DNA of 63,602 bases, filler included, from Rhabdomonas costata (GCA_019059605.1; 31 parts of 31 records of this genome joined end to end with filler, not necessarily neighbours in it), one strand, 5' to 3'; counted from the whole stretch's first letter, positions 1-63,602 are shown. Notes: generated by a model not told the origin, from the sequence alone. A program made the numbers and translations.

Positions 1-549
1 GTTGGTTTGTCACACAATTTCAGACCAAACGGTACTTAGTCTTTCACACAGCGCTAAGAACGCTCAGTGATGGAATCAACGTAAAATAAAAGATCTGGGC
101 GGTCTTGCGCTCTGGCATGTGATGGAATACAGGCTAGTGGTTCACACTGAGCTAGGTGTGGAGGGGGTACCCTGGTTCAGATACTGTCAGGCACCGAAGT
201 CGGCTCGAATCCATGTCACGGTCTAAAGCGCTGGTCCCCATTTGGCGTTATGATGAAGGCAACTCTGGACAAACCCCCAAAATGTCTTCCCCTATGGAAC
301 AGCGGGCCAGCAGGTTCCTGGTTGGGACACAAGTTGCCAGTTTCTCGAGCAGTCGCGAGATGATGACTGAGAAAGGTCTATCTCTTTCTCCCTGATCCAC
401 ACGCACAGTCTCTCTCAATCATAGCGCAACGAACAGCGGGAACTGCGTGGTCCCTGTTTTTCACAGTAGTGCATCTCGTGACCCAAACTAAGTGTGGTGA
501 ATTGCAGGGCTCAGCAGATTCATCGGGAACACAAAGGGATTGGTGCATG

Positions 550-736
550 CAAGAAGACCTTCCACGACGATCTTCTTGGAGCTGCGGTAGTTCTCGGCCT
601 CCATGGGGCTCAGCGAGGCCACGGCGGGGTGCTCGTTGTAGCAATCCCGCCTCACGGCGGGCGCGGAGTAGCTGCACAGCGTGGCCATCTGAGAGGAGTA
701 GCTGCTGGACGACGAGGCCTCCATTGAAGAATCCAT
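550..736 (-). CDS. N-terminal exon of a DDX5/DDX17/Dbp2-like DEAD-box helicase (fragment)
   Basis: RRDCYNEHPAVASLSPMEAENYRSSKKIVVEG resembles the DDX5 pre-Q-motif segment KNFYxEHPxxxxxxxxEVExYRxSKEITVxG. The 3' end is approximate and no clean downstream exon was found. Confidence 0.55.
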
Positions 737-1478
737 TTTGCTTTCAAAGCCACACTAACACACGCACACCCGCCTGCGTTTCCTGGGAAAACAATAAGAC
801 GAAGGGAAAGGGGTGAACTATGGGGGCAGGTCTGAAGTGTTCCACATCTGCGCGTAATTATGGAGGACGTCCATTTCATCACCCGATGATAGCGCTCTGC
901 GTACTGCAGCAGTGGACAATGTACACAGCTGGAGGGCGGCTAAGGCGGAATGAGCACGCACCAAGTTGCCCACAGTGGAGGGGGTCGCAGCGATTCATAC
1001 TCTCAATCTCTCTCGGGATGGCCAAAATGGAGCAGTAATGGAGGAGCACATGCCAGCCCGTTCTCAAAGCCACTTATGTGAAGGAAGCAGAGATTGCAGG
1101 CGAGTGCAGCGGTAACATGACGGCCGAATCAATCACCACTCCTTGCAGCAAAGATGGCAACAACTTTGGTGGCGGATCGGAACCTATTGCCTGTACCCGA
1201 GTACCAGAAACGAATCCTTTCGTTTCGGCAATTGTGTCGTCTGCCGGCATATCGGTCAGAACCTGCTGAGAATCTGAGAACCTGAGAACCCCCAGAGAGT
1301 TTTTCCATCCAGACAAACAGCCAACCTCTCGAAATCCAAAGAACACAAACTGCAATAGAGCTGTCCGCGCAGCGTGAAGAATCGTGATCGGCGCACAACA
1401 CACATGGTGGTGCGCACTATGGGGGGAATGGGGTCGGCGGGAAAAAAGGCATGGCTCCCCACAGCGTGGGGAATTCCC

Positions 1479-1598
1479 CTACAGGGAAAGGCCCTCCAGC
1501 TTGCCCTCCACAGCGGCGCGAAGGTTCTTGGTGAGATGCTGGATGCGATAGTCCCGGCGTGCCACGGTGGCCTTCAACTTTTGCACTTCCTCACGGGC
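1479..1598 (-). CDS. Terminal exon of a small coiled-coil protein
   Basis: Acceptor attattag, then AREEVQKLKATVARRDYRIQHLTKNLRAAVEGKLEGLSL*. The YRIxHL motif resembles the RARS1-type N-terminal leucine zipper. Confidence 0.5.
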   Translation of the reverse strand, partial: AREEVQKLKATVARRDYRIQHLTKNLRAAVEGKLEGLSL

Positions 1599-2058: not shown

Positions 2059-2420
2059 GTGTGGTGGGGTTTGGTGTTACGGTTGGTGCGAAGGGTATGT
2101 TGGTTGCGTAGGGTGTGTTGGTGGTTGCGTTGGTGGTAGCGTTGGTTGTAGCGTGTCGTGGAGTCGTAGTCGTTGGTGCTGATGCTGTAGGGGTTCGTGG
2201 TGTGGTTGGAGCTGGTGCGTTGGAGGTTGGTACGTTGGAGGTTGGTGCTGCTGCTGTGTGTTCTTCGCTCTCTGTCTCAGGGTCTGTCTCAGGGTCTGTC
2301 TCAACCATGCTCTCAGGGTTCGTGTCAACCATGCTCTCTTGCTTCGTAACCATGCTCTCTGTAACCATGCTCACTCTGTCTCTGTTCCTGCTGTTGTGTT
2401 GGTTGGTTGGTGCGTAGGGT
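2059..2420 (+). repeat. G/T-skewed low-complexity tract with short tandem units
   Basis: Repeated TCTGTCTCAGGG and AACCATGCTCTC units, directly upstream of the RT region. Confidence 0.7.
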
Positions 2421-4008
2421 GTGAGATGCGCAATGAAAGGGTCCACCGTTGGAAGGATATTCTTCCTACCCTCTGGGCTACCCAGAGCGCGCGCGTGTTC
2501 TCGTGGCTGAAGGCGGACACGCCGTCCTGGGGCTCTTCTCCTATTTTACAATGCTCGGGCATGCAGTGCACCACTCTCGAGGAGGTCGATATCCAGGTCC
2601 AGGACTTTTGGGTTAAAAAGATCTGGAACCTGCACGCCTCGGTGGATTCCGCGCAGCGATGGGCAGCTTTTCAGTCCTCGCCCTTCTTCGCACACATTCC
2701 GATGGACTGCAACGCTTGTGAGTCGGAGCGTGTGCGGACTGTCCTCCGGAGTATGCGGGAGGGCTCCTCTCCAGGGGCCCGAGGCTTCCCCATTTCTCTC
2801 TGGAGGGCCCTTCCGGACTCCTTCCTCAAGCGGGTAGCTGACCTCTTTACCTTGGTGGAGGTGGATGCGTTGTGGCCTAAGGAGCTCCTGACGGCATACT
2901 TCACGATGATCCCGAAGGCCTCGGGCGGTAGTCGCCCTCAGGACAAACGGCCGATCACAGGGCATGGTCATCACATGGGCCCCTGCCCTCCAGAGCTGTT
3001 ACCTCGGGTCCACGGTGATGGGGTTTCGGGCGCAGGCAGGCACCCTTCACCTCGTCCAACTGCTGGCCGACTTGATCGAGCTTCAGAAGCGGCGTCGGCA
3101 GCCCTTATGGCTGGTGTCGTTCGACGTGGAAAAATGCTTCCCGTCGCTGCCGTGGTGGGCCATTTTTGGCGTGCTGGAGCGGGCCGGAGCTCCTCCTCAT
3201 TTGGTGAACTGTTTCCGCAGTTTCTACAGCCACCTCCGCCAACGATTTCGCTACGGCCAGGTGGATGGTGCCGAGTGGAGTGCGGCCAACGGCCTTGCGC
3301 AAGGCTGCCCTGCGAGTCCCGACTTGATGAACATCTTGTTCGAGCCCTTCCACCGCTGGGCCGCTGTGTCGGAGTTCCTATCCTAGACGAGTTCATCGCC
3401 TCGGGCAGCTTCGCCGATGACGTGGCGCTGGTGGCCACCTCCCTTGCAGAGGTGCTGCTTCTGGTGAACGGGTACCAGGCCTGGTGCGACCTTACCCTCC
3501 ACGTGGAAAAGACAAAGCTGTGGTCGCTCCAAGGTCGCCCTGGCGATCATATTGAACTATCTTTGGCCAAGGGCCCTCTCACCTTGGAGCTTCAGCCTAC
3601 GTTCCGCATTGTGGGAGTTGAGCTGGGATCTCAGGAACGTGTCGCCACTACGGCTCACTTCGCTCCGCGTCTTGCAAAAGCTCTTCTGGGAGGCCGGCGG
3701 CTCGCTGCTCTGGAGGTACCCGCAGCAGTTGCTGCCCAGCTGTGGCGTACGGCCATTCTTCCCACGGCATTGTATGGCAGTGAGGTTCGGCGGGTTACCC
3801 CTTCTCAGCTTTGGCCCCTGGCTTTACAAGGCCGCAAGGTGGTGCCGGCGAAGCTCCCGCTCTCCATTTCTCAATACGGAGCCATTGGGAGCCTGCGCCT
3901 TCCGTGACCCCCGCCTGGATGTGCTGGCCCGTCGTCTACGGTGGCTCATTACGCTAGCCAATCTGCCCAGCTTGGTCGGGACGGTACACCGCTTTCTGGC
4001 CACCTCCT
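2420..4008 (+). mobile_element. Non-LTR (LINE-type) retrotransposon reverse transcriptase, frameshifted
   Basis: RT motifs in order across two frames: SSPGARG, IPKASG..RPI, GFR, SFDVEKCF, GLAQGCPASP, FADD. Frame changes near 2960, 3380 and 3890. No introns. Confidence 0.9.
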
Positions 4009-4589: not shown

Positions 4590-5565
4590 TGCAGGGCACC
4601 ATATTTGGCCGAGAAGTACGCGGCGGCGTAGATCCCGACCCGCTCTGGGGCCCGCAAGAGGACAGTTCCAAGGCTGAGGTCCGGCCGGGCGTTCAGCGCG
4701 TCCGCCACCTCCACACAGCTGTAGATCCGCGCCCCGGACTCGTAGTCCACCACCACAATCAGATCTATAGAGCCCAGCATCACTTCAGTCCGCTCGGGTA
4801 CGGGGAAGAGAACGGAGGACGTGGAGGATACCATACTTATTTCATCCTCGAAAAGTACTGCTGAATTTAAGATGGGCAAAAATGAATCCACAGCGTGTGG
4901 CAAAACTCTGCGATCATTTTCTGATTCTCTCTGTGTTGTGACCTTTCTATGTGTTCGTCGCCTAACGTAGAACGTTTCGGTTTTGTGGTCGATTTTTTTT
5001 GGGAACAGTTACCAGTGGCAATCATTACCAGTGGTAACCGTTTCCAGTGGTTACAGAAATCTGGCTCAAAAAATTTTTTCTTTATGTATTGCAAAGTGAA
5101 AAGGTCACAGTGCTTGCCAAATTACAAGCAACACAGAAGTTTTGGCAGATGTTGCGGGTCGGAGGATCAGGATTGAGTGAAACAAACTGCCCAAGGGATG
5201 CATGAGTTCGCTTGTCGCCCAGGGGCCATAATAGCTTAACATAAACCAATCAAACTGAGTCACAACTTTCCCCTCAAACGCATGTAACTTCATTGCAATG
5301 AAACAGCAGAGGCAGTGTTGGGCAGCAATTCGATTATGCCCAGACACAACAAGGAGGCAAAGAGCGGTTGAACCGAAAGCAGATGCACACCAGAGGGGTC
5401 AGGCATGCCATCGGTGAGGTGAAAGCTCACCATCACTATGCTTCCCACAACGGCCGCAGGAGTGGGGATCAATCTGCCCGAGCTGAACTCCGTGCCCAGC
5501 TTGAAGAACTCCGTCAGGTCGGGGTTGCGGGTGGGGTTTCCAACGAGAGGTGGTGGTGCCAGAGC
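4590..5565 (-). CDS. Two exons of an unidentified protein, possibly rhodanese-like
   Basis: Exons 5565-5391 and 4860-~4590 join in phase through a GT(GTGTGC)-AG intron. LIVVVDYES...FSAKYG is a weak rhodanese-like pattern. Confidence 0.4.
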
Positions 5566-6539: not shown

Positions 6540-7160
6540 ACCGACGCAACTCTCATTCACTCAACTCTCCAGCTCCAACTCAACCCTCCTTCTTATTCTC
6601 ACCATACGACCCAGAATCCGCACCATGACCTTCCACGCAACCTTAAACATCCAACAACGCAAAATCACCGTCACTCACACGCACACGCAACAACCACCCC
6701 ACCGTCCATCACCGCAAAGTCCACAGAAACCGTGAACACTCACCTTCACCATCACAAAACCACGAACACAAAAACACACGACGACAGAAACGCGAACCCA
6801 CAGACATTCACCCTTCACCATCCACCTTCCAACGTGACACCGTAACCACCCATTCTCGATCCTCCACACGAAACCATCCACCCTCCACAAAATCCACGCA
6901 AACACGAAACCCTACACCTTCCACACGCAAATCCGTCACACCCTCCCCAACTCCCACACATTCGAACTTCTACCATCCACAAACACAAACCACCGAGGCA
7001 ACTCTGACCCTCAGACCCAACGCACATACAGTGACCCTCCGACACCTCAACGTGACCATGACCACAACATCCCAACGTGACCCCAACGTGACACCATCCA
7101 TCACACACGCACCATCCATCATCCACAACCTCAAAAGTACACATTTTCACTCAACAACGC
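6540..7160 (+). repeat. C/A-skewed low-complexity tract with recurring AACGTGAC units
   Basis: Very low G and T on the + strand. AACGTGAC occurs four times between about 6830 and 7095. Confidence 0.6.
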
Positions 7161-8680
7161 ACCCTTTGATATTCACATAAACAATCATGAACCTAACAGT
7201 TTTACTTTGCACTTACTCTCTTTATGCATAAGACAATAAAATTCATCAAAAACCGCTTTGTTTTGTGAAATATCCCACTCAAGATCCATTCAAAAAATGA
7301 GAGAGGAGAGAAAACGCGTAAGAAATGACCCCTTTTTGATGTTTTTCTATAACAAATGCTTCCAAGTGCCAAGTGTGACAAGTGTGTGAATTAGGTTGTA
7401 GAATAGAAATCATAAAAAGTGTATAAAAACGCAAAAAAAATACACCCGCAAAAGAGGGTGAAAAAGATGAGAGATGCAGAAGTGGTATTATCAAGACGTC
7501 TCACATGCATGTAATTGTCTTTAAGGTGTTTGTGGCCCCTTTGTTTTTGCTGCTCGTATGCTACGCAACGCTGTGCATATTTCCTAGATGTGATGATTCA
7601 TGTGCTCAACCGACATAAGCCGCGTACGAACATTCACCTACCCCCCACACTCTGCAGCGGTCGTTGGGGTGGTAATCATGAAAGATGAGTGGTGAGGGTC
7701 ACCCAAGATGTCCTTGATGGTCGCATAATCGCAACGCTCGTATGCTCCCTAAATGAAGTGGTTAGTGCATTACACCACCATAAGGTGTCTACATGCACTC
7801 ACTCTCTAAGGTCTTCACTCACTATGTTAGTTGTAGAAATGCCTTTAAGAGAGAAAAAGATGTTTATTTCTGGTCGCATACTCGCATACGCTCGTATACT
7901 CCCTACATTTGATGGTTCATTCGCTCCACTGCTACGCGGTTACAATATCAAAGATCAAATCACAGCAAAGGAGCCCATGTAGTAGATGAACCAGAAGGCA
8001 AATCCACCGCAACCAGAACCCGGACACCAAACGCATGAATCATTGAAGCAGCTCCGAACACAGCACCCACCTAACCACAACATCCAACCGACCATAGTTC
8101 ACAACAACAAAAATGAATCCAAGTCNNNNNNNNNNNNNNNNNNNNNNNNNNNNNNNNNNNNNNNNNNNNTTAATTAATTAANNNNNNNNNNNNNNNNNNN
8201 NNNNNNNNNNNNNNNNNNNNNNNNNGGTTGTGTGGCCGCGGGCAAGGGCGAGGCGGGACGGACTCAAAAGGATGGCAGCGGCAGCATCGTCCACGGGGAA
8301 GCCATTGATCGATGGGAAGGAATCAGCAGTTGTGAGCCCGACACTCGGGTGCAATCCAAACGGCCCTGCAGAAGACTTCAGCGGAAATTACCTGACTTCA
8401 CGAAGGACCGGCTCCGGCGAAAATGACAACGCGGCCATTCTGTGGAGGGAACGACTCGGGTTCAAAATTTCCGTTGGAAATGGACTCGACGAACGGTCGG
8501 TAATCGATGCAGTCCAGGACAGCGGTGCTTGACGTGGGGGTCGAGTGCTTTGTGTCTGTTGGATTGGTAGAAAAATGCACAGCCCGTGCAGCCGTTGAAG
8601 GAAAATGTTTTTGTTTGAAAGCGAAAGACGCACGGAAAAGGTGAATGGTTTGACTTCTCTCTGTGCCTTTGTGTCTGCAG

Positions 8681-9744
8681 GAAACAAGTACGAGGATGCC
8701 AAGCCGCTCTTTCTTCAAGCTGCGAATCAGTTCAAGGGAGCGAGCCTATGGGAGGAGGCCGGGAGGGCTTTCATTCGTGCGTCGGAGTGCTGTGCAAAAC
8801 TAAAGCATGCTTTTTTATGCTCCATTGCGGTTCCGACCATATCCTTTCAGGCTTTTTGTTTTTTCGGAAACAGCGTTTTCTTTTCGTTCTTTGCCATCTC
8901 AGGGAACCTCTGGATACCGCAAACAATCTCGCTGAGGCCGCAGCCATGTACAAGAAAGTCAATCCCTTGAAAGCAGCGGGCTTCCTTCAAGAAGGTGGCG
9001 CGAACATGTCTCGTTTGGGTAAAACCGTCCGTTTGTTGCGTGATGATGAGATTTGGTTTTAGATTTTCAGCACATTCAGTATTGCACAATTGGGACGCTG
9101 TGAGGGGCTCCTTGGCTGGGTTAAGGTATTTGAGGAATAGAGCGTTGTCCACCATGTTTTTTTTCTTCATTGCGTTTTCGTTGTGTTTCTTCCGGATGCC
9201 GTTCATGGTGGTGATGGTGATGCTCATGGACCCACCCCTCGGAGGGCGGGTAGAGCAGATCCACACCTATGTCAGAACAGGCGCGAACACATGGGGCTTG
9301 ACGCCCGGAGGAGCACGACGACCAGCACCGGCACGAGCACGAGCACCATGACCCACCTCGTGGTTGTGGATGTCGTCATGGATGGGTGCTGGCTGATGGT
9401 TTCGTTGTTCTTGCTCTACTTCAGAAAAGCAAGCATAATTGAAGCACTCCTCTGTAAAGGGGATTTGAAGTAACTGTTTGTCAACTTGTTTGAGACTTTG
9501 AGTTGAGGAAGTCTCCTAGAACAGTTTCATTTCGTTTTTTAATTCGCTGTCTTCTTTGCTGCCAGCTTTGGACACCTTCGACAAGTCGGGCCGTTTCAGC
9601 AAAAGCGCAAAACTCTCCTGCGACCTGGCAGAAACGTTTGAGAAGGACGGAAATCTGGACAGTGCCATGGAGTGGTACTTGAAGGCATCCGACTACTATC
9701 GTTCGGAGGGCTCCACCTCTACTAGCAACGGCTGCAGATTGAAG
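8681..9744 (+). CDS. SEC17: Alpha-soluble NSF attachment protein (alpha-SNAP/Sec17), internal exons
   Basis: Exons 8681-8804, 8903-8994 and 9566-9744 splice in frame: NKYEDA..F.QAANQFK...WEEAGRAF...ANNLAEAAAMYKKVNP...GRFSKSAK...AMEWYLKASDYY...NGCRLK. Intron 1 is GC-AG. Confidence 0.93.
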
Positions 9745-10067
9745 GTTTGAGCTGGCCAAACGCACCCACGGACTCCATAGGAGGCTGAGACATAAATGCA
9801 CACCACCTTCTTTCTCATGAGGCGCATTAAAATGCCCCACTTTGCAATGGGTGACGGGGCCAGTGTATGTATGTATGTATTGGGCTTGATTTGTTAGCAG
9901 CCCCCCCCCGGTCCGCTGCGCTCCCCGGCCAAAGACTTCCGTACAAGCAACACTTAACTCGACCCAACAGTTCACAGCATCGCCAAAAATGTCTATAGAA
10001 ATATACAACACCGCTGTATAAAGTTTATAGCATGGCTATTTTTACAGCGTTACTTCATACAGCGTTT

Positions 10068-11270: not shown

Positions 11271-11780
11271 ATGCTGCTTGCCCACCTTCCACCATGGCTG
11301 TGCCTATACCGCCATTGTGGCTTCCCTGTTCGGCTTGCGGCCGCCGCGCTGCTCCTTGTGCTGGCCTCTGCCTACGCCTTCCATGTCATCCGACCCGCCG
11401 CCCTCTCCTCGTCTCCCCGCGGGCGTTGGGGACCAGCTCGCGCATTGCTTCTGGCCCTTCCCGTGCTCGTGCCTGCCGTCCTGGCGCCCCCGCTGGTGTT
11501 CAGCCGTTCCACCGAGGTGCACGCCCTGCTGGTGGTGAGCTTCCTGGCCTCTTGGCTGATGACCCAGAAGCTCTGCGGGCTGTGCTGGGGGGTGGGCCCG
11601 CTGGCCCAGTGTCAGGGTCTGCTGAGCTTCACGATCGTCGCGATCTTCCCGGTGGTCCCCGCGGCACCCCGCCACCCCGTCTGCCCGGCTTCCGTCTTCT
11701 TTGCCAGAGCCGCGGGGAAGTTCGGGTTGTTCTTTGGGCTGGTCTACCTCTCCTCTGCACCCCTGCGCTCGGGGGGGGTT
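11271..11780 (+). CDS. MBOAT-family wax ester synthase / long-chain-alcohol O-acyltransferase-like protein, N-terminal part
   Basis: Hydrophobic ORF AYAF...GPARALLLALPVL...PLVFS...SFLASWLMTQKL.GL..G.GPL....LLSF..AIFPV fits the plant/algal wax synthase N-terminal pattern (RLLxxLP...FFxxWLxxFKL...GPL...F...LPI). The catalytic region is not seen, and the exon end is approximate. Confidence 0.65.
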
Positions 11781-12379
11781 TGCGGTCGCAGGTGCGGAGG
11801 GATCCGTACTTCCAGAGTCGCTCTCCCTGGTGATTATTCTATTCCATTCAATGTCCGAGACAACCATACCAGGCTTAGTACCTAGTAGTTGGTATTATGC
11901 ATAGGTCCAGTGTAACCGCGTTCTTTCTATTTGATGTCTCAGTCTGCCAGTATTGATTCTGGGTATCTCAGGCAGTTCTGAGTGGACGGCTCAAAGTCAG
12001 CCATGCATTTTGCCTTCACTTCCCCACAAAAACCTAGCCATGGAATGAACTGATCTCCTCTTTGTGTGGCACCTTATGGCAACGAAGCTGGTACATCAGT
12101 ACTTCCTACTTGAACTTGGGGCCACCGCCCCACCCACCTCGTAACTGATGGATAGCTATCGGTTGTTGTTGCTGCCGGTTCCTTCGCACCGCTCCGGGAA
12201 GTCCTCTTTGTGTGTCTTTGCCGCCCCCGCCAGACAATTGTTNNNNNNNNNNNNNNNNNNNNNNNNNNNNNNNNNNNNNNNNNNNNTTAATTAATTAANN
12301 NNNNNNNNNNNNNNNNNNNNNNNNNNNNNNNNNNNNNNNNNNGGGGTGGAGGACACGGAGCGGACGAAGAAGCGCATGG

Positions 12380-35237: not shown

Positions 35238-36614
35238 TCAGGAGGAGGCGAGTTCGCCCAGCCACATCGTGCTGTCGCTACTGCATGACAGCACAATGGG
35301 GCTTGTTGGGTGGAAGACAACCTGAGCGAAGTAAAGGGCAGAATAGAATCTTTCGGGTCACTGCTTTCTATCTTTTTTCTTTTATTCAGCCCCTGTCCCC
35401 ATAATCCAAAAACAGAATAGTCGACCGCAACTGCCATGTTGAGAGATGGTCACCCTCACTCCCAACCGTTCCGTTTGGGCAGAGGTACCTCGTCGCCCGA
35501 GTCTTTCCGGGAGTTGGCCCTTTGTGAACACAATCACATCCACATCCATATCTGAAACCCTAACAACGTTCACAACCTGTACGAAAATCATTCTTTCAAT
35601 ATCTCTTGATAGCTTCCTACCACCCACTCCAGCGGGAGAAACGGGTGGCAATCGATTACCCTCGGTAACCCGAGGAAGGGGAAGGGGAAGGTTGTCATGT
35701 GCAGGTTTTGTTTCTACTCAAGACATCCCCTTTTGCTCTTTGTTTCCGGTGAGACGAAAGAGCAACCACCACAGAAAAAGGGAGCTACGTCAATGGTCTG
35801 AATACCGAGCAGGGCATGTTCGTTCCATTAATCACAAGGAGATAAAAAAGCCAGGCACCTCGTTACAGGTGGCCTTGTGCCCAGGAAGCCGGTACAGCAG
35901 CTTGCGGGTGTGGAACTCCCAGATGTAGCTGTGTGCGGGGGAGTCTGAGCTGCCGGAGGAGACCATAGATCCATCAGCGGACCAACTGCACTTCAGCAGG
36001 TTCTGAAGGGCAGCAGCGAGGGGAAGTACAAACCAGCTATCCAATTCTCGAAGGAAAGAGAAAGGTAGCGTCTCTTCCTTCTTAGCGGTTGCGACGAGAA
36101 TTCGATGCCACTTACAAATCATTAATCGCCAAGAAACCGCTCTATAGCTATGAACAACCGACTACCAGCACTCTATCAGAGTAGCTTCCAACACCGTTGC
36201 ACCGCTGCACATTGCACTTGAATTGCGCCCGGAATAAAATAAGCGAAAGATTGGAAACAGCCAAGGAATACACGGCGAGATGAAACGCCCACATCATGTT
36301 ATGGTCATTACAGAAAAAAGCGGGGACCAAACTGAAACCAAAAAGAAGAAAGCGAGGGAAGCGCCAGAACCTTGTCGACCCCGTGGGTGTGACCCGTGAA
36401 GGTTTTGACGCAGCGCTGGGAGTCACCGCCCTTGCAAAAGGCAAAAGGAAAACAGAGTCAGGCTCACAGAAGGTCTTGGCGGTACATTCAAAGGGTTTTT
36501 GCACACGGCAAGCAATGAACGGACCTGAACGAAGGGCCTCACATCCCAGCATCGCAGTGTATTATCCATTGAGTTTGTCAACAGATGAGCGCCGTCGGGA
36601 GACAAAGATGAGCC
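35238..36614 (-). CDS. SNRNP40: U5 snRNP 40 kDa WD40 protein, C-terminal exons
   Basis: Exons 36614-36525, 36430-36371, 36002-35859 and 35321-35238: SPDG..LLTNSMDNTLRCWDVRPF..RCVKTF.GH.HG.DKNLLKCSWS.DG...LLYRLPGH...NEVVFHP..PIVLS.SSD...WLGEL..*. Confidence 0.95.
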
Positions 36615-37632
36615 CTGAGCAAACCAATTTCAGAAACAAGGATACTTGATATAAATGAATGCATGATCACAGAGGAAGACAGATTTCAAAGTTGAGAGCC
36701 TCTATCACAGCACAGCCTCGATCTGCGACGCGCGTAAGACGAAGTTGCATGACTTATCTTAATGAGTGATCCGAGAAGAAATGCGGGTATATTTTCTTGG
36801 CCATTCTTCAGATGTAAAAAGTTGACCAGCCACCAAAGCACACTAAGCTGAGAGCAGAAGACACTCGACCCAGAACAAAACCCAGATGTGCAATCCCAAA
36901 AGTCAGACATACAAAACACCNNNNNNNNNNNNNNNNNNNNNNNNNNNNNNNNNNNNNNNNNNNNTTAATTAATTAANNNNNNNNNNNNNNNNNNNNNNNN
37001 NNNNNNNNNNNNNNNNNNNNTGGGTGGTTTTGTGATGGACACCACATTTATTTGTGCCATTTGCAGCCGACTGGTTCTTTCCTTCTCTTCTATTTCAGTG
37101 GGTGGGCTCGTGAGACTTTTATTTGATACCCGGTATGTGTTCCTCGTTTTGAGTATTTGTTTTCCTCAGCGCTGGTGTGAATTCAACGGTCTTTCAGGAA
37201 AGGTTTAGTTGAGAGGATTTTTGACGAAGGGCCAGGTATTTTCAAATTACATTTGACGGCTCAGCTCAGCTAGGCTTGGGTAGAAGCAGGAAGTTGACGT
37301 TGGTTGGCTGCAACATCTTCACTCGCCTTCAGTCGCTGAGCCACCACGTCGCCTCATCAGTACAGTGTAGGGACTGTTCAACTCGGCTGTGCACCCATCC
37401 CGAGAAGGAGAAGAGGAGGAAAAGCATTGACGCCCTAGCTTTCGGACTGGCTGCTTGGTCTTGCGGCTTATGTTCAAGACTTGTGTGTCCGTGTAGTTGC
37501 AATGCAGAGCTGGGGGGCACACCCACTTTAAGAAGATAAGCTGCTAGCAGTAAGGCATGCATGTCAAAAGGAAATGCTACAGCGTCTCGCACAATTTGAA
37601 AAGCTGCTTTCATTTCTCTCGTTTTTCCTCAG

Positions 37633-38910: not shown

Positions 38911-39292
38911 TCAGAGGAAGTGAGAAGCGAGGCGAACAAAAGAAAAGAAATAAAGAAATAAAAACGAAACCAACCNNNNNNNNNNNNNNNNNNNNNNNNN
39001 NNNNNNNNNNNNNNNNNNNTTAATTAATTAANNNNNNNNNNNNNNNNNNNNNNNNNNNNNNNNNNNNNNNNNNNNGTGGTTGTTGTGCACACACCTTCCT
39101 CTTTTGAGATGACGCGGGCCGTATGAGGACCGCTGACGAGGCGAGAAAAGGTTTGCAGTCTTCGAAGGTCTGCCACCGGGCGACAGAAGAGCAAGTCCAA
39201 TTGACAGGTTACTCTAAGTCCCTCCCGCACATCTTTCACACCTCGCTCCTCTGCTGCCTCCCCCTCCCTGCTTTGCGCCCCCACTGGCAAAC

Positions 39293-40939
39293 CATGTGAA
39301 GCAGGGAGACGATCAACGTGACGGCCAGCAGATAGGGGTTAGTCTTCACAAGCATCCGCCTCATGTCCTCGGATGGGGAGGCCCCGGGATCTACAACGGA
39401 ATGTTGGGTACAGAGAAGGACGTGGAATTCAACTCTTATTTTTCTCAGATTTCGCCCGCAGGGTTTCGTGTACTGGTGCGCTTCTGGTTTGGCCTGCCGA
39501 TTCTGAGCAAGAGCGGAGATGATGTGGCGACGTGCGCATTCCGCCAGACTACCTGTAATCTTTGGGTGCCACCCGCTCTGTTGCAAGAAGGCGGAGGTTT
39601 ATTCGCCGCAGCGTGTGTCGTGCTCTTACTGTTGCCATCCACAACGACCTAAAAACTCAGAGGATCTTCGGAGAATCACATTACACATGCCATTGTTCTC
39701 CCTGTGGATTTCTCCCTCCCCCCTACAGTGCCTTCCTGTCGTCCTGTCTCGTGGGTGCGGGTGCAGACCTGTCCTGTCCTGTAAATGTGGCCCTGTCATG
39801 TCTGTGTGGCGGCCTGAAAATCAGATATCACAAAAAGCGTGCCATTTGGTTTCGCACTGCATCAAGTCGCACATGGGCGTCGCCCATACGATCACCTTTA
39901 CCCCCACACCAACCACCAACCGCCACCTAAACGAGCCGAGCACCCACGGAAGGACGCAGACCAGAGCCCACTCCAGCCAACGGCATCATGTCCATCGTGT
40001 ACTCCATCTGCACCAGGAACTGCCACTTCCACAGGTCTACGGGGGCGTACGTGATCTGAAGGGACAGCGACTTGCCCTCCAGGGAGCGGTTGACCTCAAT
40101 CATGTCCTCCTACAAACGCAATCATTTCCAAGAAACACACAAGTAGTGAGGACGAACAGCCAAGTCATGATCTTCTTACAAGAAACACCTGATGTTCGGA
40201 ACCAGATACGCAGGGAAGTCAAGTTGCGGGACAGAAACCGGCCGAACGTGACACTTTACACAACTGTTATGCGAAGGGCTAATTTGCTGAGAACGTTCCC
40301 TGCTTTTCTTTGTGCTCTCCTCGCCTGCGCGCTTGAGGGACACAAAAAGCCATGTGGTGGCAAACTGCAGCAAACAGGGTCGAAGAAAAACGGTTTTTAT
40401 CAGTACAAAAACTCAAAGACAGACACACACACACACACAGTTTATTCTTTGTCTTGCCGGATGTGTGGAAAACACCCTCCCCCCCCCTCCCATGAAAAGT
40501 GCCTGTGAAACCCTTACTACATGGCCACGTTGACGCTGTGATTGTGTGACCATGCCTTCGTGTGACCGCCGGCTCCAGGGCGTGCGCGCGGGCGCAGGAA
40601 AAACATTTCGAAGAAAACGTGACCGTCTGGTCCACCCTATCAGCACTTGATGCTTCGTGTTAGAAAACTGAGGTGCCCACAGTGTCACTGACGCAGACCC
40701 ACAAACAGAAAAAGTAATTCTATTTTCGAAAAAGAAGAAGAAGAAGAAGAAGACTGCCGAAAACCGCGGCCTCCGTAAAAGTGTTTTTGCAGCATGGCCA
40801 CTCAGAAACGATGCCTTACCGGCAGCAGGCTGAACTCGTTCACATACAGCACGGGGGCCCACTGGCGAGACTTCCGGTCAAACTGGATCTGGTCCGCGAA
40901 GTGCGGAGGAAGCTGCGCCGGCGAGTACGTCGTCCAGTC
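39293..40939 (-). CDS. CLPTM1: CLPTM1-family membrane protein (lipid scramblase)
   Basis: Exons 40939-40820, 40109-39962 and 39390-39293: PVLYVNEF...EVN......L.L.I.Y.P..LWKWQ...MRRMLVKTNPYLLAVTLIVSLLHM. Confidence 0.92.
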
Positions 40940-41327
40940 CTGCACACCCCCACTCCCAACTTGACCGCCCCAAACACAAGCCAACCTGCCAACGTGCAGG
41001 GGGTGATTCTCTTCAAACCAAAACCAAGCATNNNNNNNNNNNNNNNNNNNNNNNNNNNNNNNNNNNNNNNNNNNNTTAATTAATTAANNNNNNNNNNNNN
41101 NNNNNNNNNNNNNNNNNNNNNNNNNNNNNNNGGGTTTGGGGTGAAAGCATCACGATTTCATCATCGGATGCACAAAGGTATAGCCGAAAGGATTTTCGGT
41201 GAACGGGCTTCACTTGGAGACCTAAAAGGGAAACCCATACACGCTCATGCAACCGTGGAAAAGGGTTTCAGAATGTCAGTTGGAGTTGGGAATCATAACT
41301 CAACCACGCGTTGCCGTGTGTCTCAGC

Positions 41328-41391
41328 AAGAGCGGTTTCGTGTTTTATAATCAAACATTAATTTTTGATTATAAAACACGAAACCGCTCTT
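41328..41391. repeat. Near-perfect inverted repeat (about 28-bp arms)
   Basis: AAGAGCGGTTTCGTGTTTTATAATCAAA ... TTTGATTATAAAACACGAAACCGCTCTT with a short loop. Confidence 0.9.
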
Positions 41392-43876: not shown

Positions 43877-45058
43877 CTCAGCAGGGCAAGAGATGGCGGC
43901 CGCGGCGGCGCCGGAGGCCAGCCCGACGACCAGCCTGGACAGCAAATCTGTGGGGCGGTACTTCGCCATGATGTCTCGGAACACCTCGAAGAGCCCAAAC
44001 CGGCTGGTGGCGTAGAAGATCTGCCGGGTAATCCCCGCGCTCAGCCCTGTGTGCGCCATATTCAGAGCAATGAGGTGGCGTTGAACCTTAACGGGGCTGG
44101 GAGTAGCAACCGTCAGTACTGGTTGCGGTTCTTTGAGCGAATGGGCGAATGGGCGGTAACCAATGGGGACTTGGCGAATGGGCATTCTGGGACCCCCCCC
44201 CCAAGTTTACGGACCTCACAGGGTGCACGTCTCGTCCACTTATCAGGGCATTATAGAAGACCTCGTAGGGGATTACGTGGCGATTCACGTCTCCTCTAGG
44301 AGAAGACAGAAAGTCTCGCAGGGGGTTAGATTGCCCCTAGATGCCGCGCGATATATCCTCAATACCTCAATACCGTGGGACCCAAAAGCGCACCGTAACG
44401 GGGCCCTAACTGTTCTTCGAGGAGAGCGGGTTCGCTTAGTTTCAGAATCTGATCGCAGATCCCCCACACCTGCTACACGCCCGAACACAGTCCGCTCCGG
44501 TCCCGTGGTCCCAGCGCAACCGCAAAACTAGTTGGGGTGGTGGTGGTGGTGATGCTAACCACATCAACCACTGGTAATACAAAGACCTTTCGCCAGTCAC
44601 CGTGACAACTATCGTCGGAAGCCGGCCAAAGACCCAAGAGGCCAGCACTTAGCCCAGCAGTTATTCGGGACGCTGTATTCTCACCTAAACCCCTTTAACC
44701 CCTTTACCTAGAACAACCACTGTGAGAATGCAATATGCATAACCTGATTCAGCTTTTCTGTGCACCCTCAGTTCAGGTGCTGTGGCATTCTTCCCCCCTC
44801 GGTACAACAGCCCCCCCACAAATCTCATTCAGATCGGCCGCCACGCGTACCCACACCGGCATCACTCACAGAAGAACATGCTCATCGGGATGATGATTGT
44901 TGGTGGGTAGATGGTGGAGGTCGAGGTGTGTGTGTGGTACCGTTGTAGAGGGCCAGCACGCCCTCCTTCTGCACCACGGACTTCGTGAACTTCCCAAAAG
45001 AGATCCCCTTCAGAGGGCTGTCCGGGCTCATGTTCACCAGGTTCATCCGCACAGCGAC
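43877..45058 (-). CDS. Mitochondrial carrier, oxoglutarate/malate or dicarboxylate-tricarboxylate type (SLC25)
   Basis: Exons 45058-44941 and 44046-43877: VRM...EGVLALYNG|LSAGITRQIFYATSRFGLFE...GAAAAAISCPAE. Confidence 0.92.
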
Positions 45059-51810: not shown

Positions 51811-53306
51811 TCAGAGTTTCGCTGCCCGTGCTCCAGAGACCTGTCTCATCCGGGCGTGAAGCATTTGGCCCAAGTCCCACCCCCGCTGGAAGCACCGCTG
51901 CAGGTCCGCTTCGCGGGGGACGTACCGCACCTCCACAGGGTCCACCTTGGGCACTTCCGCACCCATATCCGACAGAGCCTTTTCCAGCTGCGGCACAACT
52001 CCAGCGGCCCAACTGAGGGAGAAGCCGTGGTGGGGAGGGAAGCCTAAGTCCAAAGAGCTTCGGTCAACGAGTGACGTTCACAGAAGACAGCGCAAGTTAA
52101 AATAAAATAGAAGGTGGTGCAATGGCAACGCTTGATGCCCACACCGTGCCCAGGCCGCTCCAACTCATTTCGTGCCCGCTTGTGGAAGAGCGAGCGGGTG
52201 TTGGAATTTTTGTGACGTTTTGTCGCCTCTGTAGCTAACCTTTCGGTATTGCGTTTCAACCGGAAAGAAGCACTCTGAGGAGGCCTGCTCTCGGAACCCC
52301 AGACCCACTCTCTTTGACTTCCAGCGCACCCGTAGCTCCCGAAGGCTGCCCCAAGGAAGCCCTTCCGCCGCAGTCCCTGGAGGTACCCCAGGGTGTCCAG
52401 CAGGGCGGGCAAGGCGCGCCCGTTGAGTGTTGGGGAGCCCACCACCAGCAGCCCCGCATCCAGCAGTTCCGTGGCCACCACACTGCGGTGCGACGCCCCC
52501 TGCCGCAGTAGCTGCACCCTAACCTGCGTGTGTGTGTGTGTGCATGAGGCGCTAGCCGGGCCGTCTCAGGTGTGTAACATGTATATGGCCAGAATATGCT
52601 TGCTGTGTGGCGCACAATAAGGTCTGGTGCACATGCTCATTAGAAGACAGAGGACAGAGGTGTGCAGGAAAGGTGTCGACTCTTAGGGTACGGAGGTTGG
52701 GTAAACAGTGGAATTAAGAGGAATTAAAGGCTGCACCAGCGCACTTTTCATTTAAACGATTTGCTTTTGCTTTCCCCAAAGCTGTCCAAGAAGAAGCAGA
52801 TTACCCCGACTCTCTTTTTGAATCCGGTAAAGAGGATGAGTCGACAGAAAGGGGAAGACACCCCAGCAGAAATCAGCCCCTCCGCCAGAGCCTGTGCCAT
52901 GCTCTCCACGCTGCCCCACATTGTGTCGTACAGCACAACGGCTCTGAGGGAGGGCCTCTGTGCTGCCCACCGCAGCGTGGCAGCGACAATCCATTCCCTG
53001 AGCAGATGCGGGAAATGAGAGCATCAGAAGTTCAAGAGTAAAACCCAAACAAAAGAAATCCTGCAAGCGCAAATAGGAACCTGAGGGTAGCAGGGTTAGC
53101 AAGCAGCAAATTATACAAATCAGATCATAAATTAGAGAAACGCCAACCAGAGGCACAGAGGCAGAATCTCCAGTTCTCCAGATCAAGTTCCTCCCAAACA
53201 AAATGCAGACACACTTGTGCTCTCTCCACAGTGGCCCGTGGTCCGGGGCTATGATCTCTACGGCCTTGAGGAGCTCTGCCGACCGTTTCGCTACTCGCTC
53301 AATGAC
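51811..53306 (-). CDS. Flavodiiron protein (FprA/A-type flavoprotein; O2/NO reductase), C-terminal half with 3 introns
   Basis: Exons 53306-53215, 52997-52862, 52523-52330 and 52012-51811: IIAPDHGPLWR...VVLYDTMWGSVESMAQALAEG...VVGSPTLN...GAAFGSYG|WAAG...GWDLG...*. This covers the end of the beta-lactamase domain and the full flavodoxin domain. Confidence 0.95.
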
Positions 53307-56795: not shown

Positions 56796-58299
56796 GTCAT
56801 TCCCACACCACCACCTTTCTGGGCTGGAGTGAGCGGAAGGGGGTGTTCCCCACCTGCATTGCTACCTTCCTGCAATGCTGGCGACCTTCCCTCTCATCTT
56901 TCCAATGCCTTGAAGAGTGTCCTCCTCGTTATCTCTTCTCTCCTCCCTTTCCCTGTGCCGTCGGCTTCTGAACAACCCATCCTCAACCTCAGGACGAAAT
57001 CACATCAAAAACCTCATAATGTTTTCTCGATTGAAAACTGAAGAATAAACAAGGGCTAAGCCGAAGCAGGCCTGCAGTCTTTTGTTTTTTAAAGCAGGCT
57101 TCCTGAAAAGCGCTGGTTGACCCGTCCTTGGGGTCATCGGCTGAGACGTTTCCTGACCTTTCCCCCTCCGCCGGTAGTGGAGCCCCTTGGCGGCTCCTTC
57201 ATTCCCTTTTGCACTGTTTCTTCTGCCCCAGGCAGTGGAGGGTTTTTTATGACAGCACCCACAACGTATTTGCAAAAAACTCATTATCAGGGGATGCGGG
57301 CCTTCTGCCTCAGTTGTCCGTATCAGACGTAGTCATGTCCGATGCTCAGCAACGCGAAGAAAGCGATTCGGGAAGGACACTAATGAATAGAGACAAAAAC
57401 GCAAGCCAAAGCAGAGCCAGAGACAGCAAACAAACCACNNNNNNNNNNNNNNNNNNNNNNNNNNNNNNNNNNNNNNNNNNNNTTAATTAATTAANNNNNN
57501 NNNNNNNNNNNNNNNNNNNNNNNNNNNNNNNNNNNNNNTTTTGTGGTGGCTGTTCTTTCGTTGCTCGCGAGGCGAGGCGAAAAAGAACAAAAGGGAACAT
57601 CATCAGTGAAACAAACCGAAAAAATGATTACACTCAGTAACGATAACTACGGCTCCAAGTGTGCGATTAGCGCAGAAGGAGAGCCACCAACCCTCCGCAC
57701 CTTGGTGCGGTGCATGTCCTGCTTTCTCGCAGTAGTGGCCTCCATAGTCTCTCCGGTATTCCCTGATCTGCGTGCAGCGCGGGAGTTCTTGCTGTGGGTG
57801 CCTCGCTCCTTCCAGTTCCGGCTGGACTTGTTCGCGGGCATTTTCTCTCTCTCCAAAAATGGAAGAATGGAAAGAACGCCGACGACGAGAGCTCTTCGAA
57901 GTATCCCCCCAACAACAAGAAGAGGCTTGAACACTGACAAAAAGAGAGCGAAACTCCCAAACGACAAGCCAATGAACAACGGCTGGGACACAGAACAGGG
58001 AAATTGCAAGCCTGAAAGCCTGAAGAAGAAGGCAGTTGAGACCAAAGAAACAGCTTTCTGTTAGACCGTCAGCTGGTGGAGGCAAGCAAGCAAAAGCGAC
58101 GAGAGCCTATTTCATTGCCATTGAAAGGATAGAATGATGCACCAACCATGCCAGTGCCTCAATGAGCCAGTGAATCAGAGTATCGCTGGCACGATGACAG
58201 CGTCGCCACGTAGTGACCCATGACACTGCAAACTAACCGCCTCGAATCCACACAAAACTGGACGAAGGTGTCAAACGGAAGCCACACTGGCTGCAGTCA

Positions 58300-59306
58300 T
58301 TACCCCGCTTCGGCTCGGGCCCCGCAGTCCGCCATTGCGGTGCTCACCCTCTGAGTCACAGGGTCGGCGCAGACGGCGACCGAGGCGGAGACGTCAATGG
58401 CCTCTAGCCGCACCCCGGCCTCGCGGTAGTGCCTCAGAATGGGCTCCGCCTGTCCGTGGTACGCCGCCACCCGCCGTGCGATGACCTCGGGCTGGTCGTC
58501 GGGGCGTTGGGTGAGCTCCCCACCACAGGCGTCACATACTCCTATTACCGGATTGTAAAGCAGGTTTCATCATAAAGCAGAAAGTCCAGCATTTGAAAGT
58601 CATTGCGAAAAATTTTCATATCGGAATTCACTGCGCACTTATTTTGGGAGGTGTTGCCTGCTTATGTTCACCACCATTACAGCATCCAATTACTATAAAG
58701 GGGCGATAGAAAGCTGCCCGATGGATTCATCCATCCAAAATTGCAAGGAACCGGAAATTATGAAAAGGATATTATGAACAACGAAAAGTATTGGCGCAGC
58801 GAGAAAGAGATGGCAAGGACGCTGCCAAACCATAAATCAGGTCTCGTGCAACCAGTTAAACACACAGGGCACTTTGCTGTCTAGACCGAAATTGTTCACT
58901 GTCCTGCGATCGCCACGATTTGAAAGAGAAACGAGAGGCAAAATAAACAAACATAGCATAAACGCAGGCCATGTGAACATGACGGGCCGGCCAATTTTTA
59001 AAATACAATTGGTCTCGTCGTTGGTCTGCGGATGTCTTGCGAACATATGCATATACCGGGAACTTTTGGAGGCATCGCAGGCATGTTGACACCGGGCTCC
59101 ACTATGGTGACCAAGTTGAAGCCATGCCCACAGCTCCGACAGATTCTCCGCCCGGCCATCTTACCAACCAGGTGCTCATCCTTGAGCTGCAGCTCCAGCA
59201 CATAGTCCACCGCACTGCTGCCGCCACCGCCATTGCAACCACCAAGCAGCCCTTGGGCACTGGCAAGCGTGTCCCGCAAAGCGGTCTCCAGCAAGGCGAT
59301 CTGCTC
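58300..59306 (-). CDS. Adenylate kinase, long LID type with Cys4 zinc site, C-terminal exons
   Basis: Exons 59306-59057 and 58541-58300: GRRICRSCG..FN......MPPKVPG|VCDACGGELTQRPDDQPEVIARRV..YH.QAEPIL.HY...*. Confidence 0.92.
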
Positions 59307-59759: not shown

Positions 59760-61347
59760 ATCAATAATACCAATCTTGTTCTTGATGGTTTCACATTGAA
59801 AAAGCCAATTGGGGGGGGGGGGTAACCACAGGAGCTTGACACCACTGTTGTACACACCAGCTGCTGAGATGTTGTCCAGGGCCACCTTCAGCCCAAGGCC
59901 GCCCTCCGGGTCCTCCCAGAAAAGCGTAACATTCCGGAGAGCCAGCTCCGCCGCCAGGCTAGCGTTCAGGATGGCCCAGTCCTGGGTGGGGTTGTGGTGC
60001 AGGGGAAGCTGCCCACACCCCACGACACTGAGGTTGAGCGCGAGCATCGCAGAGGAGGTGATGGGGTCCATCACCAGCGGCTGCGTCAGGGTACCACGGG
60101 CCACCGGAATGAGGAGTTCGGCCGACAGGGAGGCCGAGAGCACAGGAAGAGAAATCGTGTCTACCGCGAACCCTGATGTGATTTGGGATGACAAACATAC
60201 ACTCATACACTATCGCCGTTTGCGGCAGAAAACAAGAAAGAAAAAAGGTGGGCGTCACAACAAAAGCAGTACCTTCACATGGAGAGAGAATCTCTGCTGC
60301 AGAAAAGGGGAGTCTACAAACAAACGAAAAACAGTGAAGAGGATGCGGATCACAGTCAGGCGTTTGGCGTGGAGTGAGAAGAAGAGACAATAACATGGAG
60401 AAGATCGCCGATGCTAGTGCCGGCGAAAGAAAAAGTGAGGAAAATCACACAAACAACTAGAGGCCGAATCCGAAGCAGCAGAGGTCTTTTCTATGTGCAA
60501 TGGGTCTCGAAACTCTGCATGGCCCGTAATTTCAACCTCACGCTGGTACGAACCCGCGCACCTTGACCACAGCACCCACAACGTAATTACAGAACCCTCT
60601 GTGAAACACGGAATCTACAACACCGGTGAGAAAGATCTCCTTTTGGAAGTCCTCGCAAGGTGCCGTACGTATCACTATTACAGCAGCCTTGCAGTGCTGC
60701 AGAAATCTCCCCAGAAAGCGGGCAGCAAGCTCCTTCACACTGACCAACAACTCCGCGTATTCGAATGTGCACAACCCCTCATCACCGGGCATCACCACCC
60801 CTCAATGCGATCATCCTATTCCCATCCCCATCTGCCAGACCTGTGCCTGGGCACTGCAGGGTGGTGGTGATGACCACCGCAGCGGATAGCAGCACCGGGG
60901 CGACCTGGACCTCAAGCAGCGCGGTCGAATTGGAGGGGAAGGCCACCTGAAAGGTGGCCAGGCCGCCCGCCAAGGGATCCAAACTGCAGTTCCACGCGGA
61001 GGAGCAACTCAACTGCACCTCTCCGGGAAAATCTGTTTTAGGAAGACAAGAAAGGTGGAAAAGGGAGAAGCTTCTTCCATGCGGTGGAGACTAGCTACCG
61101 TTTACCATTTCATTTTCAAGAGAACCATCCTTATATGCTTCATATGCGACCGTGTATCTCTGCAACAAGTGCCACTGTCCGCAAGCACGAACCCGTGCAG
61201 TCACACCAGACAAAGCAAACAACTGGGCCACGCAGGGCTCCAAGACAGCGTCAGGGATGCTGTACTCCACCCGCAGCGCAAACGCAACCCCGCCGCGAAC
61301 TTCAGAGCCGTTCGGCCGGAGCGTCACGCCTCCCGATGCCACGACCT
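59760..61347 (-). CDS. Multi-exon unidentified protein, possibly surface or secreted and beta-rich
   Basis: Three GC-rich coding-like blocks (~61347-61235, ~61035-60850, ~60175-59760) with several NxS/T sequons. No family recognised, and boundaries are approximate. Confidence 0.35.
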
Positions 61348-61648
61348 TGCGAAGAGCACATAGGACGATGACAAGGCACCACAGTAGAGAACATGGGGAC
61401 ATCCCAGACATCCATCAATACGCAGGCAGAAACTACTGATACAGCAGGGCCAAAAAGCCAACCAACCAAACCGGCAGTGTTCTTGCTCGAACCCATTGGA
61501 TGTGTTTGGCAAGGGTTCTCTCACTCTTAGCACTGAGGACAACCAAGCNNNNNNNNNNNNNNNNNNNNNNNNNNNNNNNNNNNNNNNNNNNNTTAATTAA
61601 TTAANNNNNNNNNNNNNNNNNNNNNNNNNNNNNNNNNNNNNNNNNNNN

Positions 61649-62633
61649 GTCTTTTGTTCAAAGAGGTGAGATTAGGGAAAAACGTCGACGCAGCAAGTGC
61701 TTGCAACCCTGACGATCCTATTCCGTTCCGGCACACATCCAAGAACGTGAGGTCGGGAAAGAAATGTGAGGAGGCGAGCATCTGCAATCCCTCTGATCCG
61801 ATGCGATTGCGGCCTAATTCCAGTGACGCGAGCTCGGGAAAAAAGGAAGAAGTAGCAAACGCTTCGACTCCCGCAGCCCCGATCTCATTATGGCATAAAT
61901 TTAAGCACTGGAGGTTGGTGAAGAAGGAGGAAGCTGCCAGAGCCTGTATTCCTGCATCCCCGACAATGTCAAAGCCAGCATTCACGACTGTGAGGTTTGG
62001 AAACAAAGGTGATGCCATCAGCGCACCCAGCCCAACTTGTCCGATCCTGTTACCGGCAATGTGAAGAGACTTAAGCTCGGAGAAAAACGGTGAGGATGAG
62101 AACGCTTGCATACCGGCAGCCTCAATCTGGTTGTCGCTTGCATTGAGAGTCGTCAATTTGGGGAGAAAGCAGGATGCAGCAAGCGCTCGCATTCCGGAAG
62201 ACCCAATCTCACTCTGTCGCACATCTAAGGATGTGAGTTTCGTGAAGAGCGAAGAGGCCATAAGCGTCTGCATTCCCGAAACTCCAAATGCTGAAAAGCT
62301 CACTATCAAAGACGTGAGGTTGGGGAAGAGAGAAACATTGGATCCAACAACCACTTCTGCAGCACCAATCCGACCCAAGAGCTCCAGGTCCTCCTTTTCT
62401 TTAATCGAGAGCTCCCCAGCGGAGCAAACCAGCCAGACAGCCTCGCGAACACGTTCCATGCTGAAAGAATCTCGGAGGGACCTCGAAAATCGAGGGGTTG
62501 CCTTCCATTCCAGGACGAGACATTCATCAACAATGCGTCGAAACCGCCGGCAGACTAGCCGAAGGGTCAGATGCAGCTCCATCCGAAGGAACCGAAAGCA
62601 ACAAACCAATGCGTCCTCAGAAAGCGCGGACAT
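61649..62633 (-). CDS. F-box plus RI-like leucine-rich repeat protein, intronless, 3'-truncated
   Basis: N-terminal LSEDALVCCFRFL.......LRLVCRRFRRIV (F-box), followed by about 8 repeats of 28 aa of the form FPxLTxLxxxxNxIGxxGxxALAxSxF. Confidence 0.9.
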
Positions 62634-63602
62634 CGACACTTCGGACTCCTTTCTTTCTCAGCGCTTCAAAACAGAACAAAGCACAAGACTAGAAAAGTGA
62701 AACGCGAGGAAGCCACCCCAAAATTTGCGCAATACGCTCGTGCACCGAAATCTTTTTCCTCCAACACCATAATGATCACATCTAATGCAATCCCAACACA
62801 TCGTCAAAGCTCTGTGTCCTCGCCAAACTCACCAACGGAGATAAAATTTATTCGCACCGTGGTGCCTCCTCTCAACGTCGCCCCCTTCTTCGATCAATAG
62901 AAAGCGAGCGGTCAAAGATTCAGCAAAAAAAACCTCTGCATTATGCATTACCTGTAACAGGATGCCCGGCAAGGACGTGACACCCTTCCTTACCACCGCT
63001 AAACATCTGCCCGTGTCTGGGGGCCCAAGGCAGCCCCGTTCATTTGGAGCAGCCGCTGATATATGTGGGATTGCCACGCCACCGTTGGAGCTTCCGGCGG
63101 CAGGACTTCAATGCCTGGAAGCATCGACGGGTCAGCAGTCGATCGAGTCCGTGTGCAAGAGGACAAGACAGGTGCTGCCCGCTCACAACCTCAAAAGTAG
63201 CCCTCACCAGCGCCAGTGGGGTCCCGCGGGATCACCACAGCGGAGCTACCCGCGTTGGCCCCATGCACGGAGACCTTGATTGCGTGCCGCAGCTGCCGCC
63301 GAGCCTTGCACCTCAGCTCCTCGTCGCCTGCATGTTGCACAAAACCATACCAACCTCCACAAAAAATCGCCACCAAACAATGCAAATCAAGAAGGACTTC
63401 CTCAAGAACACATTTAGTAACCACTGGTTGAGCTCCGGGCAAATGATTCTTCTTTATGCTATCTTACTGCTGAGATTGTGGCAAAATTTTCCCGAATGCC
63501 AGTGTACAATTGTGCTGGCCGATACTGATTTCCTGGGTCACGTTTGCTACATCTCACTTGTCTGCCGTCCTTGCATAACTTTCTTCCTGTTTTCACTGCC
63601 TG

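Follow-up and report, generated by a model that had tools for sequence, protein, structure and literature searches.

Facultative anaerobiosis is well described in the euglenids (PMC8219788), and Rhabdomonas costata in particular is credited in the same paper with a 'facultatively anaerobic mitochondrion', PNO, rhodoquinone and a fumarate reduction that feeds wax monoesters; a flavodiiron protein (FDP) gene already belongs to the anaerobic repertoire of Euglena gracilis (10.1101/228015). At the level of single proteins, the closest described systems are the class-A FDPs of known structure, namely Desulfovibrio gigas ROO (1e5d), Moorella FprA (1ycf) and the Giardia FDP (2q9u), and the fused proteobacterial proteins of the indolepyruvate ferredoxin oxidoreductase (IOR) family, which combine TPP_enzyme_C, POR and DUF6537 domains. 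Here we describe a 63,602-base stretch of DNA (the window), in which 31 separate contigs of 1929–1960 bp each, about 60 kb in total and with GC contents of 0.46–0.60, are joined by N44-TTAATTAATTAA-N44 spacers. The window is probably a small, essentially random nuclear sample of a Rhabdomonas-like euglenid, and it includes fragments of an FDP gene and of an IOR-family gene, both of bacterial type and both split by introns. The features on which this reading turns are the following.

57540..57646, minus strand (contig 29): spliced-leader RNA gene, with the leader exon at 57643–57617 and then GT
51811..53306, minus strand (contig 26): C-terminal half of a class-A FDP gene, four exons, spliced frame of 206 aa
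55485..56768, plus strand (contig 28): IOR-family fragment of the fused IorA/IorB type, three exons, 60–67% identity to bacterial proteins
11271..11783, plus strand (contig 6): first exon, from ATG, of a predicted multi-pass membrane protein resembling the N-terminus of MBOAT_2 (wax-synthase/ASAT-like)
43877..45058, minus strand (contig 22): predicted SLC25 mitochondrial carrier, two exons, UCP/dicarboxylate/oxoglutarate-carrier group

Spliced leader, composition and introns

The placement of the window among the euglenids comes from contig 29. Bases 57617–57643 on the minus strand agree with the R. costata leader printed in PMC8219788 at 24 of 27 positions, the last 17 of which are identical, and such a match was found in 0 of 100 shuffles. 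In the predicted fold of the 108-nt stretch containing it (minimum free energy −26 kcal/mol, z −2.76), the leader pairs with the intron, CCCUUUUG stays single-stranded and a hairpin forms on the 3' side. Spliced-leader RNAs usually have this form, and the features of such an RNA are all present, comprising the leader exon, the GT donor, an Sm-like site and the 3' hairpin; no Rfam model matches the stretch. A first-pass annotation of the window had proposed a flagellate source, possibly euglenozoan, and this euglenid-type gene bears the proposal out as an independent marker. When protein phylogenies are not available, a fragmented eukaryotic assembly can still be placed by a spliced-leader RNA gene. 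On contig 29 that gene follows the adenylate kinase exons, some 670 bp further downstream and on the same strand.

All 31 contigs agree in dinucleotide signature (CpG 0.77 ± 0.06, TpA 0.53 ± 0.08, CpA 1.21 ± 0.07), and the contigs bearing the FDP and IOR genes fall in the middle of the spread. Against a background GC of 0.505, the GC content at third codon positions (GC3) is 0.69–0.84 in the FDP exons, 0.76–0.96 in those of the IOR gene, 0.84–0.85 in those of the carrier and 0.80 in the MBOAT-like exon, and it is 0.78–0.93 across the CLPTM1 (0.81–0.93), ADK, helicase, zf-MIZ and P4-ATPase genes. All eight introns that were measured are bounded by GT/GC-AG, with a mean length of about 500 bp and with C exceeding T in the last 20 nt in five of them; a ninth, in the helicase gene, was read by eye. 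These introns fit the conventional introns of euglenids as described in PMC11170887, and the 29 complete introns seen across six genes of R. costata are all GT/AG (PMC8219788). Because the spliced leader, the codon bias, the intron style and the uniform dinucleotide signature agree, the source is most likely a Rhabdomonas-like euglenid. A dinoflagellate origin was rejected on the GT donors, present in eight of the nine introns, and on the euglenid type of the leader. E. gracilis itself is unlikely, as none of the nine introns is nonconventional, compared with about 57% in that species (PMC11170887), and the leader matches that of Rhabdomonas.

Contig 4 (6167–8125) was the only outlier in dinucleotide composition, with a GC skew of −0.25 and A+C-rich low-complexity runs. 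Published euglenid drafts are in similarly short pieces (N50 955 and 1194 bp); that of R. costata, which comes from reads of an amplified sample, is 51.6% GC. Palindromic (self-inverted) ends were seen on three of the contigs of the window, and inverted repeats lie further inside two others; both look like artefacts of assembling amplified DNA.

12348–12438; 18224–18414; 24489–24581; 38649–38711 with 38911–38973; 41328–41391: palindromic ends of contigs 7, 9 and 12 and inverted repeats inside contigs 19 and 21

The FDP and IOR-family genes

The FDP gene is divided into four exons (approximately 53306–53215, 52997–52862, 52523–52330 and 52012–51811, the last including the stop codon) by three introns of 217, 338 and 317 bp, all GT-AG, and the spliced exons encode 206 aa with no internal stop. 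The spliced product is 44–47% identical to FDPs of 397–411 aa over 187–199 aa (E 1e-58 to 5e-55). When exon 3 (64 aa) was used as the query, four proteins were found at E ≤0.001 among 691 candidates, the best of them 66% identical, and all four are 397–411 aa long with beta-lactamase-like (ODP/Lactamase_B) and Flavodoxin_1 domains. The Flavodoxin_1 family also matches exon 2 of the window gene directly, at E 2.5e-4. By tblastn the four exons cover residues ~203–396 of the 397-aa homologue P0003, to which the spliced frame aligns at E 1e-58, and the stop codon falls at residue 396/397 of that protein, with no further C-terminal domain. Since the gene ends where its 397–411-aa homologues end, the fragment is assigned from its sequence to class A rather than to the longer photosynthetic class C type; a splice downstream is conceivable. 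The N-terminal ~200 residues, which hold the diiron domain, lie off the contig, and an ...APDHGP... segment, presumably a ligand site of the diiron centre, is visible.

The likeness to the class-A proteins of known structure thus consists of the flavodoxin-like C-terminal domain, the same end and the ...APDHGP... segment, whereas the window gene differs from them by its three spliceosomal introns. It is nearer to the bacterial proteins of D. gigas (E 3e-10) and Moorella (4e-8) than to the Giardia FDP (0.0028). An exact 40-mer from exon 3 was absent from the metagenome and prokaryote-genome collections searched.

The IOR-family gene comprises exons at 55485–55570, 56150–56264 and 56659 to ~56768, separated by a GC-AG intron of 579 bp (55571–56149) and a GT-AG intron of 394 bp. 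The spliced exons align with their homologues without gaps over 98–99 aa at 60–67% identity (E 3e-42) and map to residues ~468–586 of proteins of ~1160–1200 aa, about 9% of the protein being visible. Of 109 candidates compared with the second exon (exon B), 69 scored E ≤0.01, and the majority of these are about 1160 aa long and named 'indolepyruvate ferredoxin oxidoreductase family protein'. The organisms named for these relatives are all bacterial (Reyranella, Betaproteobacteria, Roseateles, Pseudovibrio, Terrarubrum, Sinobacterium, Chromatiales, Rhizobiales and Deltaproteobacteria). Exon B contains the thiamine-diphosphate motif GDG-X26-NN (GDGTYFHSG...LLFNN), and in the homologue P0038 the TPP_enzyme_C domain spans residues 452–536. 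The gapless identity and the motif are what the window gene has in common with the fused proteobacterial proteins, from which it differs by two introns, one of them GC-AG, by a frameshift of 1 nt and by its eukaryotic host.

The calls of an intron-containing FDP and an intron-containing IOR made in the first-pass annotation therefore both stand. Given spliceosomal GT/GC-AG introns at codon-exact positions and a GC3 bias like that of housekeeping genes, the two look like resident nuclear genes of bacterial type. In a full-text search of the literature no report of an IOR-family oxoacid:ferredoxin oxidoreductase (OFOR) in a eukaryote was found, although supplements may list one; one supplement of PMC8219788 makes no mention of indolepyruvate, flavodiiron or MBOAT. 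The intron-bearing IOR-family gene in a eukaryote is the one item in the window that may be new.

Strongly complementary intron ends were found in two of the seven introns tested, IOR intron 1 (55571–56149, plus strand) and a GT-AG intron of CLPTM1 (40110–40819, minus strand); some 5 nt at the 3' end stay unpaired. The duplex energies of the two pairs of ends were −19.7 against −12.2 ± 2.4 in shuffles and −12.0 against −5.4 ± 2.0. Such introns recall the 'intermediate' introns of euglenids or introns derived from transposons.

The carrier, the MBOAT-like frame and the low-oxygen reading

The carrier gene consists of exons 45058–44941 and 44046–43877 with a GT-AG intron of 894 bp between them. 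The Mito_carr family scores E 0.0042 and 0.058 on the two exons, both under the 22.3-bit Pfam cut-off, and among solved structures the product matches UCP1 (E 6e-5) and UCP2 (E 6e-4), which supports the SLC25 assignment given to it at the outset. On these matches we predict a generic mitochondrial carrier of the UCP/dicarboxylate/oxoglutarate group. A further match to a carrier motif, obtained with a regular expression on contig 15, had no Pfam support and was rejected.

The open reading frame (ORF) on contig 6 has no Pfam match and matched nothing among 7,999 word-sharing candidates, but three matches emerged when 1.84 billion representatives were searched in full with HMMER (E 8.3e-7, 3.8e-4 and 5.9e-4). 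One of the relatives (P0075) is a Botryococcus braunii protein, of which a 391-aa isoform in the same 90% cluster (P0077) has MBOAT_2 at residues 218–310 (E 6.9e-8). The contig-6 ORF aligns only to residues 20–135 of P0077, with 28% identity over 126 aa, and has the pattern ...W L x x x K L ... G x G P L... in common with the Botryococcus protein. In contrast to the MBOAT_2 acyltransferases of the plant wax synthase/ASAT1-like and EgWS kinds, it has no detectable match to any named wax synthase, and exons for the catalytic C-terminal part of an MBOAT protein (PF13813, with its conserved histidine) were found nowhere in the window. Its protein-atlas score of 0.80 is a lead only. The original call of a wax-synthase-like MBOAT is plausible but weak, the likeness to the Botryococcus protein being N-terminal.

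If these assignments are correct, the FDP would reduce O2 or NO to harmless products through its flavodoxin-like FMN domain, and the IOR-family enzyme, if intact, would use thiamine diphosphate to decarboxylate 2-oxoacids, arylpyruvates or others, to acyl-CoA, with ferredoxin as the electron acceptor. The carrier would exchange dicarboxylates across the inner mitochondrial membrane, and the MBOAT_2-like protein would be a putative acyltransferase.

The first-pass annotation had joined the four genes into one coordinated low-oxygen programme of ferredoxin-linked oxoacid oxidation, O2/NO detoxification and a wax-ester sink, in an uncultured micro- or anaerobic flagellate. In favour of this, the window does contain intron-bearing genes for both an FDP and an OFOR-family enzyme, and wax-ester fermentation and mitochondria capable of facultative anaerobiosis are known from the euglenid lineage (PMC8219788; PMC10407231). 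The window resembles the facultatively anaerobic euglenids E. gracilis and R. costata in its lineage, as judged by the spliced leader, and in the FDP gene also listed for E. gracilis; mitochondrial carriers and wax-ester metabolism are known from the group. The enzymes that define this metabolism, namely PNO, rhodoquinone methyltransferase, fumarate reductase, TER and WSD, were not seen in the window, and an IOR-family gene has no mention in the literature searched. The genes lie on separate, unlinked contigs, in agreement with the annotation's own description of them as a co-occurrence and not a cluster. Pfam scans covered 988 stop-to-stop ORFs of at least 40 aa (322 of at least 80 aa, 330 of 55–79 aa, and 336 of the 359 of 40–54 aa, 23 being removed as low-complexity), and PFO/PNO, hydrogenase, RquA, TER, FAR and WSD were not seen among them. 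This absence carries little weight, because the same scans, which returned no POR, Mito_carr, MBOAT or dynein family, missed three real gene fragments (IOR, carrier and MBOAT-like), and because the window holds some 60 kb. Reyranella, Roseateles and the other named bacterial relatives of the IOR gene are largely aerobic heterotrophs, so the IOR family alone is no marker of anaerobiosis. The terminal wax-ester enzymes of E. gracilis are WSD2 and WSD5, whereas EgWS, of the MBOAT type, shows weak expression and yielded no wax ester when placed in yeast (PMC5647427); wax ester synthase is reported as undetected in the R. costata transcriptome. The carrier, for its part, is generic. We therefore consider a coordinated programme quite unlikely: the FDP, IOR, carrier and MBOAT-like genes are four separate, unlinked genes, and the toolkit is a co-occurrence in a small random sample. 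Taken as a whole, the annotation is partly confirmed as observation, with the dynein it had listed not recovered and the MBOAT weak, and partly supported as interpretation, in the taxon and not in the toolkit.

Several points weigh against the placement we prefer, that of a Rhabdomonas-like euglenid with resident FDP and IOR-family genes. The three mismatches to the published R. costata leader all fall within its first 10 bases, and the lineage marker is on one contig of the 31, the others being tied to contig 29 by composition alone. Codon bias is weaker in the SNAP gene (GC3 0.54–0.69), an F-box/LRR ORF (0.55) and one reverse transcriptase (0.51), and the membership of the contig-6 ORF in MBOAT_2 comes from a 28%-identical N-terminal segment. 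Finally, the reading frame of the IOR gene shifts by 1 nt within a run of C at ~55553–55556, between ...APFTT and PHMFQ of the first exon (exon A). The few genes of lower GC3, together with the assembly artefacts evident from the contig-end palindromes, would fit contigs that came from more than one organism, the FDP or IOR contig belonging to a different eukaryote or being chimeric. However, the contigs agree in dinucleotide signature, codon bias and intron style, the exon junctions are codon-exact with respect to the homologues, unlike those of chimeras, and no contig has the dense long ORFs of bacterial DNA, and we regard a mixed origin as very unlikely. As for the frameshift, either an assembly error or a true lesion could account for it. 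A true lesion, taken with the GC rather than GT donor of IOR intron 1, would suit a decaying remnant of gene transfer, the IOR fragment and possibly others being pseudogenes and not working enzymes. Apart from the shift, however, the 98–99 residues remain gapless at their level of identity with the thiamine-diphosphate motif intact, the high GC3 suggests selection on translation, and a shift in a run of C in an assembly with palindromic contig ends fits error-prone assembly, perhaps of amplified DNA; those ends call for caution over single-base errors such as this one. Decay is accordingly unlikely in our estimation.

The fullest form of the preferred placement would have a working, intron-bearing IOR gene of the fused proteobacterial type in a euglenid nucleus, adding with the class-A FDP a ferredoxin-linked route for aromatic or other 2-oxoacids, and would make the contig-6 gene an MBOAT_2-type acyltransferase; we put this forward tentatively, as a possibility that is less likely than not. 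If the IOR gene is expressed and intact, the eukaryotic oxoacid:ferredoxin enzymes would widen beyond PFO/PNO and the flexible energy metabolism of euglenids would have made another bacterial acquisition. If not, the result serves chiefly to correct the record: the toolkit is what chance drew from a lineage already described as facultatively anaerobic.

Remaining gene content of the window

Database-supported gene fragments are present on 14 of the 31 contigs, codon-biased exons without an identity on another six, and no coding signal on the remaining 11. An earlier count of about 25 gene fragments was somewhat high. The Pfam families recovered were RVT_1 (contigs 2 and 27), SNAP (5), zf-MIZ (8), Helicase_C (9), WD40 (18), CLPTM1 (20), a weak Flavodoxin_1 (26), ADK_lid (29) and F-box with LRR (31), plus three matches at chance level. 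The further genes identified are listed below.

35835..36629, minus strand: SNRNP40 (U5-40K) WD40 exons; solved U5-40K structure, E 4e-18
8599..9747, plus strand: alpha-SNAP/Sec17 exons; SNAP E 3.8e-11 and 1.6e-14
39284..40945, minus strand: CLPTM1, three exons; Pfam CLPTM1 (contig 20)
26430..26537, plus strand: P4-ATPase (phospholipid flippase) exon; E 5e-6
58318..59225, minus strand: adenylate kinase exons (contig 29); ADK_lid E 1.2e-6 and 3.8e-5, GC3 0.87

The SNRNP40, Sec17 and CLPTM1 genes named in the first reading of the window are thus all recovered. An axonemal dynein, also named there, is not: heavy-, intermediate- and light-chain domains were absent from the Pfam scans, motif searches were empty, and the comparison of five ORFs with solved structures was negative. 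Rfam and tRNA scans of the whole window were likewise empty, and the tandem repeats in it were uninformative.

As the real exons are strongly GC3-rich, codon bias served to locate the genes that the Pfam scans had not shown. Strongly biased, exon-like segments lie at 563–724 (minus strand), 4607–4756 (minus), 20583–21675 (minus), 45848–46159 (plus) and 59868–61351 (minus), on contigs 1, 3, 11, 23 and 30. None of these has a Pfam match, and for contigs 3, 11, 23 and 30 a comparison with solved structures likewise gave nothing; the segments are possibly genes specific to the lineage. The ORF with F-box and LRR_6 matches runs uninterrupted for 336 codons at 61650–62657 (minus strand), and the protein atlas gave no usable signal for its lineage, the top clusters being from Mucoromycota, Rotifera, Chlorophyta and Haptophyta. 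Reverse-transcriptase fragments occur at 2183–3904 and 53435–53836, both on the plus strand. The former, on contig 2, includes an open frame of 574 codons, and the RVT_1 match sits in another frame, which indicates a degenerate element; the latter, on contig 27, has a low GC3 of 0.51 and is by eye like that of a long terminal repeat (LTR) retrotransposon.

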